From Tortispora ganteri (lineage: Eukaryota), in assembly GCA_003707115.1 (NCBI GenBank), contig PPNB01000022.1:62001-126000 (forward strand): DNA of 64,000 bases. Direction: 5' to 3'. The notes beneath the pieces were generated by a model that was not told the origin of the DNA, searched no databases, and saw only the letters and a list, made by a program, of their open reading frames with translations. The position numbers were made by a program, and so were the translations under genes. This document shows positions 944 through 13,476 of this stretch, piece by piece (within the stretch, counting starts at the first letter, position 1; each line of letters begins with the position of its first letter).

Positions 944-1924
944 TCACGAGGTAGCATTCTTCTTGCTTGTTGTCTCGAGGTTTGACTGTTTGTCCGAACT
1001 GGGAGTCTTCTTGGACCGCTTCTTTGCCTTAGTGGTGCCCGAAGGGGAAGGGGAAGGAGAAGGATCAGTTGCGCCAGGGTTGGACGCGTGCGATGCATCG
1101 ACCTCATTAAAAGGCTTAGCCGCTTTGGTTTTCTTAGAAGCAAATTTGGTCGACTTATTCTGTTTTGATTTTGATCGTTTCGAGAGCTTGGAAGACTTCG
1201 AACTGACATCCGTCTGAAGCTGCTTGTCTTTCTCAGCTTCCAATATATGAGCAGCGGACTGATCGTCAGATCCTTTGAAATCAGAAGTGATTAATTCGAT
1301 CGGTTTTGGAGGTTCCTTTTCTGCGGCTGCGGCTGCTGCCCTTTCTCGTCTCCCTGGCTTAGCTGGTTTAGAAGACTTGGCATTTTTAGATGGTTTGCTG
1401 GTCTTCGCTTTGGAGTTGGCATCCTCTGCGTCTTTCGAAGCTGTTTTCTTCCTTGATTTGGCTTTCTTCGATTTGGCAGACTCAGTTCCATTTGCATTTT
1501 TACCTTTCTGACTCTTTTCAGACTTAGGCAGTGATACCACATAGTTCGGGTCTTTCCATTTGAGGTACATGATGTTCTCTCTGAATGTGTTGTTTAGCGG
1601 ATCTGGATTATTCTCGCTTTTTATTGGAGTGTCCTGGTTGATTGCAGGCTCTACACTTAACATCAATGACCCAGATAGCTCTGTGTGTCCGTGCATAAGA
1701 GTTCCTGAGACAGAATTTATAAACGATCTCGCTAGTTCTTCGGTCTTGAAGGTCACATAAGCATAGCCTGGGTGCTCCAATCGGGTCATTCTCTCCTTCT
1801 TACCAGGCTCAAAGCGCATGTACACCGCCGCATCAGCAGGTATATCACCTGCATATTTTAACAAATGATTCGCAAAATCGGTCTCGGTCGCATCATACGG
1901 AATATTGCGCACATGGACCTTCAT
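944..1924 (-). CDS. UPF3: Nonsense-mediated decay factor Upf3 (Smg4/UPF3 RRM-like domain plus Lys/Ser-rich tail)
   Basis: KVHVRNIP..TETDF, FEPGK, AYVTFK, VEPAINQ, DPLNNTF resemble the Smg4_UPF3 pattern (KVVIRRLPP, PGK, AYINFK, VEFAPFQ, DP..GTI). Confidence 0.7.
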   Translation of the reverse strand: MKVHVRNIPYDATETDFANHLLKYAGDIPADAAVYMRFEPGKKERMTRLEHPGYAYVTFKTEELARSFINSVSGTLMHGHTELSGSLMLSVEPAINQDTPIKSENNPDPLNNTFRENIMYLKWKDPNYVVSLPKSEKSQKGKNANGTESAKSKKAKSRKKTASKDAEDANSKAKTSKPSKNAKSSKPAKPGRRERAAAAAAEKEPPKPIELITSDFKGSDDQSAAHILEAEKDKQLQTDVSSKSSKLSKRSKSKQNKSTKFASKKTKAAKPFNEVDASHASNPGATDPSPSPSPSGTTKAKKRSKKTPSSDKQSNLETTSKKNATS

Positions 1925-10204: not shown

Positions 10205-12196
10205 TCACAAATAAATCCTATGAGAGCCGTCGACGTTATAGGTTACTCTTTCCGATAGTGCGTATCCACTTTCATCCGCAGTAACGGCACTGAAATCATA
10301 CCATACAGATGTAGAGTCTGTATTGCGGCTAAACGTCGCATTTAGAGTACCGTTCTCAGGCAGCGTCAGTGCCTGGCCGAGAGGAAAGAAAGCCGGGAAC
10401 CAAGAGCGCAAACAATTTTCAGATCCTGTAATATTGTTAATCACAATATCTCCATACAGAACGGCCTCAAAATACCCCAAGAACCCGTTTATTTTAGTTT
10501 CTGAAGACACATTGTCCCATTCTACCTCTGAGAACCGTTGATTCATCACAGTGGTGTTGCTTAAAAGGTCCATTGGCATCTCCGGGTCTTTATAGATACC
10601 TTGAGGAAACCCAAAACTCCATAATTTAAAAGGTTTAATACCTTTCCACGGAGAGTATACGCTTTTGGTTCCTTCCTGAGCATGCTCTGGATTAGCAGAA
10701 AAGTATCGCACTTTATCGGGATTCACAATCAGAGGCAGTCGTTTAAATTCATCTCTGCTTCTTGTCGCAGCCGTCCATTCGCTATGCAGCAAAGGAGAAT
10801 ATATAGGTTCAACGAAAGTCTTGATGTTTGAAGGGATCATGATGGTGTTGGGCGATTTCATGCTACAGAGTTGCGGAAGGCTTAAGCATTCGGGGCACAG
10901 TTCATTATCGCCAAACGACCCAATAAGTTCTGATACAATAATATCAAACGCTCCAAGTTCAGCTAGACGTACACTTGCTTTCAGCGTGTCTAAAGTCAGC
11001 ACTTTCAGACAGCTGTAGTGAGCCTCGTATCCCTCTTTAACAGCCGCAACTGGCACGGGGTTGCGTTCAATAGCCACGACTTTGAACTCTATGTCATCAT
11101 CGCATTCAGATCGGCAATGCATAATCTCATCAATAATGCGGCCGTAACCTGCGCCTATCAGTAATATAGATATGCAGTTGATTTCAGGGTCACGATCTGT
11201 AATCGTTTTCAGTGCGGAGGCAATAGCAGCTCTATACATGCTATACTTTTTATGGTCGGTTTCCATAGTCTTATACATTGTAGAAGTAAGAAGTTGCTTA
11301 TGTGGCTGCATAGGCGTCTGCAGGACATCGAGATGGGTCTGTTTCCGTTTAGGGAACTGTCGTTTTAGCACTCTCTTGTAGTAAGAGGGAAAGCCCAGTA
11401 CTATTATGTTCTTATCAGATTGAGCCGAAAGAAAATTGCTTTTGTTGGGTAATGCCTCTGAATGTAATCGCAGTGCTATGACTGGAGGGAAAGAGCTTGC
11501 AGCAAAGGCCGCTAGAAGGCTCTCATACGCGGGTCGCAGTGCAGGCAAATTGCGCTGGCCGGGTAGGAACGGAGTCTCGTTCTCGTCCGTTATATCCAAA
11601 AAGATGTGAGAGACAGTAGAAGAGTACCAGTCAAAGAGGGTGGCCGAGAGATCAAGAGAGGCCTTCGAGAATATCAGCACAGGTTTGATGACGATCTGCG
11701 ATGGCAAACCCGAAAGCGCTTCGTGCCACATCTGATAAGACCTCGGCATTTGGGCGTTCCAAAGAATTGAATATGATAGATTAGGATAAGCAAGAAATAC
11801 GGAAGAGAGATTGGAGAAGGAAAAGCCATATAGAGATTGGTCTTTGAAGTCTATATTGATCAGAATTGTGCTGTAGCCGAAGTGTTCAGCTACTTGTATC
11901 TGTTGAAGCAGATGCTGTTTAAGCAAAGAGACAGCATTTTTAGAGATAGAGAAGGTAGATGAAACCATGATTGTGATGATATTTATAGTTTTCTCGTACA
12001 ACATATGCTCGATCTGTGGCAAAACTGGAGTGTGATGATCGGCAAGGGCGCGAATGTGTTCACAAGATTGATCGTACTGCTCCTTTGACTGCACATTCAT
12101 GTAATAGCGATCAAAACTCAAATATTCATACTCTGAATCATGCATTGGGCAAATATAAAGATCACCGCTTAAATCTGATAGGCAAAAGTCGACCAT
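10205..12196 (-). CDS. HSL7: PRMT5-family arginine methyltransferase Hsl7/Skb1 (divergent)
   Basis: LQTPMQP..L.S..Y...E.D..KY, GAGYG, VVAIERNP, DIIVSELIGSFGDNELCPECL, GYFEAVLY, SWFPAFFPL. Confidence 0.9.
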   Translation of the reverse strand: MVDFCLSDLSGDLYICPMHDSEYEYLSFDRYYMNVQSKEQYDQSCEHIRALADHHTPVLPQIEHMLYEKTINIITIMVSSTFSISKNAVSLLKQHLLQQIQVAEHFGYSTILINIDFKDQSLYGFSFSNLSSVFLAYPNLSYSILWNAQMPRSYQMWHEALSGLPSQIVIKPVLIFSKASLDLSATLFDWYSSTVSHIFLDITDENETPFLPGQRNLPALRPAYESLLAAFAASSFPPVIALRLHSEALPNKSNFLSAQSDKNIIVLGFPSYYKRVLKRQFPKRKQTHLDVLQTPMQPHKQLLTSTMYKTMETDHKKYSMYRAAIASALKTITDRDPEINCISILLIGAGYGRIIDEIMHCRSECDDDIEFKVVAIERNPVPVAAVKEGYEAHYSCLKVLTLDTLKASVRLAELGAFDIIVSELIGSFGDNELCPECLSLPQLCSMKSPNTIMIPSNIKTFVEPIYSPLLHSEWTAATRSRDEFKRLPLIVNPDKVRYFSANPEHAQEGTKSVYSPWKGIKPFKLWSFGFPQGIYKDPEMPMDLLSNTTVMNQRFSEVEWDNVSSETKINGFLGYFEAVLYGDIVINNITGSENCLRSWFPAFFPLGQALTLPENGTLNATFSRNTDSTSVWYDFSAVTADESGYALSERVTYNVDGSHRIYL

Positions 12197-12297
12197 GGGG
12201 GGCAGTTATTGGAAAAGTATGGTTGGTGGCACTACTAGTCAATCTATAACTTCCCACCTTCTCTAACCCTTTTTTCCCCCTTTATCATTTATACAGC

Positions 12298-12966
12298 ATG
12301 CAAGGTGGCCGTAGAATACGGATTCCTTCTATCAAAATAGTAGTAGTTGGTGACGGAGGATGCGGTAAAACTAGCTTATTAATTGTATATACTAAAGGTG
12401 AATACCCTGGTGAGTATGTGCCGACGATATTCGAGACATATAATAAAGTGATAGAGATCAATCAGCGGCAGGTGGAACTAACATTATGGGACACGGCGGG
12501 TCAGGAGGAATATGATAGGTTAAGACCGTTATCTTACCCTGAAACAGATGTGTTTCTTGTATGTTTTAGTATCGATAACCGCGAAACTCTAGAAGATGCA
12601 TTCGAGAAGTGGATTCCTGAATGCAAACATTTCTGCCCATTCTCGCGGATATACCTAATTGGGTTGAAATCGGATCTGCGGAAACACGCAAAAGATGGAC
12701 TAGTAGATTACGAGTTGGCTAAAACAAAAGCTGAATTGTTAAATATTAGTTATTACGAATGTTCGTCGCTCAATAACGATTTCGTTACTGAACTGTTTAA
12801 CGATATTATAGTGCAGGATATATACGATTTGGATCATTCCTACAACGCGCGACCCGGAAATCCGCAGTTTACGCGCGCAGAGGCAACCCCCGTCAACAAC
12901 CGGTCTTCGCACTCAAAATCGAATTCAAAGTCGAAATCGAAGCTAAAGAAGTGCGTAATCTTATGA
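12298..12966 (+). CDS. RHO4: Rho-family GTPase Rho4
   Basis: GDGGCGKT, YVPTIFE, WDTAGQEEYDRLRPLSYP, GLKSDL, CaaX CVIL. Confidence 0.85.
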   Translation: MQGGRRIRIPSIKIVVVGDGGCGKTSLLIVYTKGEYPGEYVPTIFETYNKVIEINQRQVELTLWDTAGQEEYDRLRPLSYPETDVFLVCFSIDNRETLEDAFEKWIPECKHFCPFSRIYLIGLKSDLRKHAKDGLVDYELAKTKAELLNISYYECSSLNNDFVTELFNDIIVQDIYDLDHSYNARPGNPQFTRAEATPVNNRSSHSKSNSKSKSKLKKCVIL

Positions 12967-12971
12967 GAACC

Positions 12972-13163
12972 TCACCGCGCCGCGTCTTTTGATATCTGTT
13001 CGATATTTGTCCATAATGACGAGACGTTTTCGAAGTCTCTGCCTATCGCAATACTCTCTTCGATGGACCTATTTAATTCATTTAGCTGAGATAGCACGGT
13101 CTCAAATTTACCTGAAATCTCCGCGATTAGAATCTCTTTTCTGGACTCATACTCCTTGTTCAT
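12972..13163 (-). CDS. DAD1: DASH/Dam1 complex subunit Dad1
   Basis: EYESRKEILIAEI...ETVLSQLNELNRSIEESIAIGRDFENVSSLW matches the Dad1 pattern; ATG at 13163. Confidence 0.85.
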   Translation of the reverse strand: MNKEYESRKEILIAEISGKFETVLSQLNELNRSIEESIAIGRDFENVSSLWTNIEQISKDAAR

Positions 13164-13212
13164 GGTGGTGGAAGCTGTCGAAAACTTAGAGTTCGACAAT
13201 CACCACACTTTT

Positions 13213-13218
13213 ACGCGT
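13213..13218. promoter_or_regulatory. MCB element in the DAD1/DAD3 divergent spacer
   Basis: TTACGCGTCA in an 85-bp ATG-to-ATG spacer. Confidence 0.6.
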
Positions 13219-13248
13219 CAAACCTCTCTCTACTTACTACCACCGGTC

Positions 13249-13476
13249 ATGAACCAAATACAGGCTCAACAAATACTACTGCAAGATTATGAATCATTGA
13301 ATAATTCATTAACTGAATTAATAGAAATTTTGCTTAAAATAAATCAGAAAAACGTCCCTGAAATATCAAATTCATTAAGAAACGTGGAAACTAATCTAGC
13401 ATTAGTGTCCACGCTCATGAAATCTTCCGTGTATTCAATATTCATGGAAGAACAGCCTAGTGACGTTAGCTACTAA
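13249..13476 (+). CDS. DAD3: DASH/Dam1 complex subunit Dad3
   Basis: QQILLQDYESLNNSL...EISNSLRNVETNLALVSTLMKSSVYSI matches the Dad3 pattern (LR.LE.K..LV.TL.KASVYS); ATG at 13249. Confidence 0.82.
   Translation: MNQIQAQQILLQDYESLNNSLTELIEILLKINQKNVPEISNSLRNVETNLALVSTLMKSSVYSIFMEEQPSDVSY

Follow-up and report, generated by a model that had tools for sequence, protein, structure and literature searches.

A PRMT5/Hsl7 of the yeast Tortispora ganteri carries methionine at the product-specificity phenylalanine and might have a changed methylation specificity

Phe327 of human PRMT5 has been treated as the defining residue of type II product specificity, and in the papers that we found the sole functional version with methionine at this position is engineered. 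Could a PRMT5 that evolved naturally have lost this phenylalanine, and what would such an enzyme make? Phe327 stands in the way of methyl transfer to the second position (PMC6272650). As the hindered step is a second transfer onto the already methylated nitrogen, the symmetric product is enforced. Phe327 corresponds to M48 of type I PRMTs, a methionine facing the substrate guanidinium, and type I identity needs other residues as well, such as Arg54, Tyr148, and His293 of PRMT3 (PMC6272650). In Caenorhabditis elegans PRMT5, the F379M mutation raises activity and both symmetric and asymmetric dimethylarginine (SDMA and ADMA) are made; the human F327M mutant gains ADMA (PMC6997592, PMC10147102). 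Because F379M raises activity whereas F379A/G lower it (PMC6997592, PMC10147102), methionine is the one tested substitution known to keep the enzyme active. The original prediction relied on the type I methionine and on the two products of the engineered enzyme, and both points hold in these three reviews.

The window, a stretch of 64,000 nucleotides of a T. ganteri contig, contains a gene whose 663-residue product (P0001) is a full four-domain PRMT5/Hsl7 by its domains, fold, and catalytic motifs (Table 1). The PRMT5 methyltransferase domain (PF05185, 118.8 bits versus a cut-off of 22.9, E 2.9e-34) and the C-terminal beta-barrel (PF17286, 82.4 bits versus 30.3, E 4.8e-23) both scored above the curated Pfam cut-offs, and all eight matches at E ≤0.001 in a PDB sequence search were PRMT5s, including human, C. 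elegans, and Xenopus chains. The structure model, built on an alignment of PRMT5s (mean pLDDT 81.5), matched human PRMT5 (4GQB) with a Z-score of 38.0 and an r.m.s.d. of 2.9 Å for 570 aligned residues, spanning residues 1–663, compared with a Z-score of about 25 for type I enzymes. Identity to human PRMT5 is low overall, at 20–23%. The N-terminal region is too diverged for the Pfam profile PRMT5_TIM (PF17285), which gave no match there, and residues 1–285 alone had no usable match in an atlas search, in which the whole protein matched PRMT5 clusters at 0.97. As the model and human PRMT5 match from end to end, the N-terminal 280 residues would form the TIM barrel despite the missing Pfam match. 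The T. caseinolytica protein (P0002) is 91% identical; its public model of 514 residues begins at the counterpart of Met150 (window 12196–11750 missing) and is thus without about half of the TIM barrel, whereas the T. ganteri frame is open from Met1, as used in our model. The start annotated in the public model probably lies too far downstream.

A Rho-family GTPase gene (12298–12966, plus strand) lies head to head with the PRMT5 gene, and the two probably share a promoter because their starts are only about 100 bases apart (12196–12298). The window also contains a Dad1 match (frame 13199–12972, minus strand) and a Dad3 match (13162–13476, plus strand), adjoining genes of DASH-complex subunits (12972–13476) that lie head to head on opposite strands with their starts nearly touching.

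Table 1. Features of the PRMT5/Hsl7 gene in the window, with human PRMT5 numbering for the counterparts
Feature	Position	Strand	Basis and state
PRMT5/Hsl7/Skb1 gene (P0001)	10205..12196	-	Single uninterrupted frame, 663 aa; Pfam and structural match
N-terminal TIM-barrel domain, ~residues 1–282 (predicted)	11351..12196	-	Alternating strands and helices in model; whole-length structural match
Met296 (Leu312), second of three arginine-tunnel residues	11309..11311	-	Gap-free block; Leu in 166/169 others
His299 (Leu315), SAM pocket	11300..11302	-	Alignment; non-conservative; Leu in 165/169 others
Met311 (Phe327; C. elegans Phe379), product-specificity position	11264..11266	-	Gap-free alignment; codon ATG
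Lys317-Tyr318 (Lys333-Tyr334)	11243..11248	-	Alignment; kept
Motif I GAGYGR	11138..11155	-	Alignment; three glycines kept; Tyr351 for Arg368, Arg/His353 for Pro370
Post-I motif Glu377-Arg378-Asn379 (Glu392-Lys393-Asn394)	11060..11068	-	Alignment; acidic residue kept
Asp403-Thr404-Leu405 (Asp419-Met420-Arg421)	10982..10990	-	Asp kept; Thr for Met420, Leu for Arg421
Double-E loop: Glu423, Glu432, Ser427 (Glu435, Glu444, Ser439)	10889..10936	-	Alignment; kept
Ser598-Trp599-Phe600-Pro601 (Ser578-Trp579-Phe580), type II counterpart of THW loop	10394..10405	-	Alignment; kept
C-terminal beta-barrel, ~residues 456–663	10208..10831	-	PF17286 and model

Met311 is encoded by an in-frame ATG and lies within a block (residues 288–329) that phmmer aligned to the human PRMT5 chain of 4GQB from residue 304 without any gap, placing it at Phe327 as originally predicted; this and the other residue assignments are based on sequence alignment instead of a residue-level structural alignment. 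The same block pairs Tyr308 with Tyr324 and Lys317/Tyr318 with Lys333/Tyr334, and Glu312 and Asp314 also match invariant neighbors. No other phenylalanine takes the place of Phe327 in the alignment, and the helix of residues 305–312 was modeled with a pLDDT of about 90. The codon was confirmed in assembled contigs, as distinct from raw reads: the contigs of four runs with four organism labels (X1, X3, X7, and X8) are gap-free at this site and none differs from ATG, with 4, 18, 25, and 25 differences from the window, respectively, elsewhere over 521 bases. T. caseinolytica also has methionine at this position. Since X7 and X8 are identical over the compared stretch and have the same 12 amino-acid changes there as the T. 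caseinolytica protein, these sources represent about three close lineages and not five, and the silent divergence among the methionine-bearing lineages is at most 0.10.

Methionine at this position is not common in the PRMT5 family. Among 169 other PRMT5s, namely the nearest protein matches of the T. ganteri protein and the best 150 of 1181 matches among 50%-identity representatives, the column contains Phe in 167, Gln in one, and Met in one. When the best 120 of 4135 protein matches and 80 of 540 metagenome loci were added, the 349 distinct other PRMT5s had Phe in 342, Gln in four, and Met in two, with the column not covered in one; the fraction 342/349 overstates the conservation because the two added samples favor canonical sequences, and the search that gave the 1181 matches was driven by the T. 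ganteri protein itself and is biased in the opposite direction. Saccharomyces cerevisiae Hsl7 and more distant Trigonopsidales were not identified among the comparison sets. The fungal Hsl7/Skb1 proteins are single-copy like the T. ganteri protein but have phenylalanine in all ten members of the budding-yeast group in our tree (named clusters: Wickerhamiella sorbophila, Lipomyces oligophaga, and Limtongia smithiae), and Schizosaccharomyces pombe Skb1 has phenylalanine (F319) as well. A literature search, with most subscription journals outside its coverage, found no natural methionine orthologue of PRMT5; the papers on F-to-M mutants that it returned concern engineered forms only, and there was no paper on this enzyme among the matches listed for Tortispora.

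The few other proteins without phenylalanine look different from the T. ganteri enzyme. All four Gln rows belong to a single Trifolium repens cluster (P0038, P0172–P0174), in which the second catalytic glutamate is also replaced by Gln. This clover copy has Gln at Phe327, Met at Lys333, and Gln at Glu444; the last substitution serves as an inactive mutant of human PRMT5, and the copy is likely a pseudo-enzyme paralogue. The two Met rows (P0119 and L088) are one lineage in metagenome contigs with Asp at the first catalytic glutamate. It is represented by a short PRMT5-like protein of about 380–390 residues (L088:1420–2568, plus strand), apparently without the TIM barrel, and is probably an independent PRMT5 offshoot, degenerate or repurposed. 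Both kinds share with the T. ganteri protein the non-Phe site and the loss of the Arg-Gly-Pro pattern of motif I but, unlike it, have each lost one catalytic glutamate. Among the PRMT5s examined, the T. ganteri enzyme is, by the residues aligned, the sole one that combines this methionine with a complete set of catalytic residues.

Met311 does not stand alone. There are 65 columns whose residue is kept in at least 90% of the 167 reference PRMT5s, and the T. ganteri protein departs at 18 of them, Met311 included; the references themselves depart at a median of 1 and a maximum of 10 columns, and no other PRMT5 in the set diverges as much. Conservative replacements (L/I/V/M, K/R, E/D, or W/F/Y) account for about ten of the 18 departures. 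The T. ganteri protein differs from human, Xenopus, and C. elegans PRMT5 (4GQB, 4G56, and 3UA3), apart from a TIM barrel below Pfam detection and the low identity, by Met for Phe327 and Leu312, His for Leu315, Tyr for Arg368, Arg/His for Pro370, Thr for Met420, and Leu for Arg421. W579, F327, and L312 line the arginine tunnel (PMC8539453), and L315 has been placed in the SAM site (PMC10094674). Asp419 and Arg421 are found in 166/167 and 165/167 references, respectively. At Met420, the threonine of T. ganteri (10985–10987, minus strand) is outside the four commonest residues in the reference set; the M420T mutant of human PRMT5 has known structures with inhibitors (PDB 7MXG and 7MXN).

Motif I is altered as predicted, with GAGYGR for GAGRGP, except that its final arginine is a feature of the window and not of X1, X7, X8, or the T. 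caseinolytica protein, which have histidine there. We rejected a broken SAM loop because all three glycines are kept. The Arg368 column has arginine in 159/169 others. In Xenopus PRMT5, the R364-D65 salt bridge connects an arginine to the TIM barrel of the partner in the head-to-tail dimer (PMC3581573), and the altered motif I more plausibly reflects a missing arginine of the dimer interface than a damaged glycine loop. The widely used dead PRMT5 mutant is G367A/R368A (PMC8132155, PMC2755859); the Gly367 counterpart is kept in T. ganteri and Arg368 is changed. In addition to Phe327, the type II active site comprises Lys333, Glu435, Ser439, Glu444, and Ser578 (PMC6272650; motif definitions also in PMC13047808), and all five counterparts are kept, as are those of Tyr324, Tyr334, Glu392, Asp419, and Trp579. 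Both glutamates of the double-E loop can be read from the frame, in agreement with the original prediction, and none of the published catalytic residues is lost.

The 47 kept conserved columns have no difference between the T. ganteri and T. caseinolytica proteins, versus 32/311 other positions (Fisher p 0.013), and the 18 changed columns differ at 1/18, versus 32/311 (p 1.0, too few changes to tell). Over residues 260–431, dN/dS is about 0.25 against X3 (8 amino-acid-changing and 9 silent, 17 of the 18 differences of X3 being counted) and about 0.30 against X7/X8 (13 and 12, respectively); against X1 there are 4 amino-acid-changing differences and 0 silent ones, which are small numbers. These ratios, from this gene alone, indicate that the gene is under purifying, but loose, selection; exact look-ups of ten further proteins of the genome, intended for a divergence comparison with T. 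caseinolytica, returned none. Its stem branch in the tree has 3.55 changes per column versus a median end branch of 0.67. The Rmt1 of the same genome is close to human PRMT1 (406 bits), so the fast evolution seems, from this single comparison, particular to the PRMT5 gene. Given such a fast-evolving gene, the Met311 swap may reflect drift rather than a new function. The free tree placed the T. ganteri protein outside fungi among long branches (support 68/0), and a tree with the protein among 17 ascomycete homologues was not rejected (AU p 0.239). A kinship with the methionine protein P0119 was rejected: long branches meet there with the same support of 68/0, flagged as long-branch attraction. 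Three queries (PF05185, a Pneumocystis protein, and the Wickerhamiella cluster) found this PRMT5 only and no second, canonical copy in the 1044 contigs of the genome, which may be incomplete. Scans with the Pfam profiles of pICln (PF03517), SMN Tudor (PF06003), and PRMT5_TIM (PF17285) gave no match, but neither did their controls, and these scans do not indicate absence. The type I genes Rmt1 and Rmt3 are present and intact, each with its own methionine, and Met311 falls in the same register as that of Rmt1 in a weak BLAST segment.

The T. ganteri protein and the type I PRMTs (PRMT1/Rmt1 and PRMT3/Rmt3) have the methionine of the M48 position in common, but the former has a TIM barrel and is without the THW loop, Arg54, and Tyr148, having Ser-Trp-Phe, Lys317, and Ser427 instead. 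Because it has neither the Phe327 of canonical type II enzymes nor the THW/Arg54/Tyr148 set of type I enzymes, its sequence fits neither activity class. The closest resemblance is to the engineered F379M and F327M mutants, which carry the identical substitution at this position and likewise retain the catalytic glutamates; the mutants were reportedly described by Sun et al. in 2011. These are single changes in a canonical enzyme, whereas the T. ganteri protein is natural, with the methionine fixed in about three close lineages and with 17 further conserved-column changes. The worm and human single-mutant result cannot simply be transferred, since the swap sits amid changes of the cofactor pocket and the dimer contact.

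What could such an enzyme methylate? Among the Sm-like frames of the genome (L010, L011, L017, and L018), read exon by exon, those which we take to be SmB, SmD3, and SmD1 are without RG-repeat tails, and a presumably Lsm4-like frame keeps an RGG-rich tail with nine RG pairs. Histone H4 keeps Arg3, and H2A is without Arg3. Both H3 and H4 (L103:2097–2507, plus strand, and 1477–1788, minus strand) have a few fold residues (e.g., H3 ~78–80 and H4 ~70–75) that seem unusual for yeasts. The demand for symmetric marks might be low because the presumed SmD1, SmD3, and SmB frames are without RG tails and H2A is without Arg3. According to PMC9017121, SDMA is undetectable in S. cerevisiae lysate, and HSL7 deletion leaves bulk methylarginine (MMA/ADMA) unchanged. 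The cell-cycle roles of Hsl7 and Skb1 are independent of catalysis (PMC2172454, PMC3681693, PMC10219947), and one of these papers reports that the role of Skb1 in chromosome rearrangement requires Phe319 and both glutamates.

We tentatively prefer, with a confidence slightly below even, to read the protein as the single PRMT5/Hsl7 of its lineage, still a SAM-dependent arginine methyltransferase but under relaxed constraint, in which Met311 would have removed the steric guard for the symmetric product. On a few substrates, for which histone H4 Arg3 and the Lsm4-like RGG tail are candidates, it might first make monomethylarginine (MMA) and subsequently both SDMA and ADMA. Rather than having been selected as a switch, the swap would have persisted because this yeast has little need for a mark that is strictly symmetric. 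The long stem branch and the tail-less frames with their putative Sm labels are consistent with the relaxation. Catalysis is favored by the 47 kept columns, which include all the catalytic Glu, Lys, Ser, and Trp of PMC6272650 and are invariant between the two species, by the dN/dS ratios, and by the contrast with the other non-Phe proteins. The 18 changed columns, including Leu315, Arg368, Pro370, Met420, and Arg421, speak against it; they are no more conserved between the species than the remaining positions, although the changes are too few to tell. Of the claim that this is a naturally evolved PRMT5 with changed specificity, the residue assignment, the rarity, and the engineered precedent stand, whereas nothing shows selection for the methionine and the 18 changes weaken it; a change in specificity is plausible but unproven. 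It is possible, though somewhat less likely than not, that a wild PRMT5 writes ADMA as well as, or instead of, SDMA via a tunnel doubly lined with methionine (Leu312Met and Phe327Met); the only PRMT5 of an extant eukaryote would then be an enzyme of dual type I/II that arose in nature.

A rather unlikely, though substantial, alternative is an active but weak enzyme that makes mainly MMA, or still SDMA via compensating changes of the pocket, with Met311 having no effect that matters. As Hsl7 adds nothing measurable and SDMA is undetectable in S. cerevisiae (PMC9017121), the second methylation may hardly happen; MMA is reported as the in vitro product of Hsl7 by the title of a cited paper, and PRMT5 is described as non-processive in a review. 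The lost Arg368 dimer bridge together with six other non-conservative changes may slow catalysis, and the protein lacks the counterparts of Arg54, Tyr148, and His293 of PRMT3. However, one F-to-M change was enough for two distant PRMT5s to make ADMA although they lack those type I residues, and the second tunnel change, Leu to Met, should loosen rather than tighten the tunnel.

We consider it unlikely that the protein has little or no catalytic activity and is kept as a scaffold for cell-cycle or morphogenesis functions of the Hsl1-Hsl7-Swe1 or Skb1-Cdr1 type, with Met311 as a mark of decay. The catalysis-independent roles of Hsl7 and Skb1 would fit a scaffold, as would the highest number of changed conserved columns in the set, the degenerate look of both other kinds of non-Phe protein, the amino-acid-changing differences of X1 (small numbers), and the dead mutant that touches Arg368. 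Decay should strike catalytic residues, as in P0038 and P0119, but the T. ganteri protein keeps all of them, invariant between lineages, and about ten of its 18 changes are conservative. The most diverged part is the TIM barrel, on which a scaffold function would presumably rely.

An adaptive conversion, in which the pocket was remodeled by the two methionines and selected for mainly asymmetric marks on PRMT5-type substrates, seems improbable. Two of the three tunnel residues have become methionine with the catalytic residues unchanged, and methionine is the type I residue, also in the register of the yeast's own Rmt1 by the weak alignment. However, ADMA writers are not missing because Rmt1 and Rmt3 are intact with their own methionines, there is no sign of selection on the methionine, and the Ser-Trp-Phe loop, Lys333, and Ser439 are still of type II. 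An artefact of sequencing, assembly, or alignment is very improbable, despite the low identity to human PRMT5 and the sequence-based mapping, in view of the gap-free block with its invariant flanking Tyr, Glu, Asp, Lys, and Tyr, the ATG in four runs, the methionine in T. caseinolytica, and the well-modeled helix.

A natural, intact, single-copy methionine enzyme offers a test of the one-residue rule in an evolved background. It also tests the effect of a second tunnel methionine and whether a eukaryote keeps a PRMT5 without strictly symmetric marks. Were the enzyme dead or restricted to MMA, it would clearly, if less surprisingly, exemplify a PRMT5 on its way to becoming a scaffold. If the dual-type reading is true, the lineage would live without a dedicated SDMA writer.
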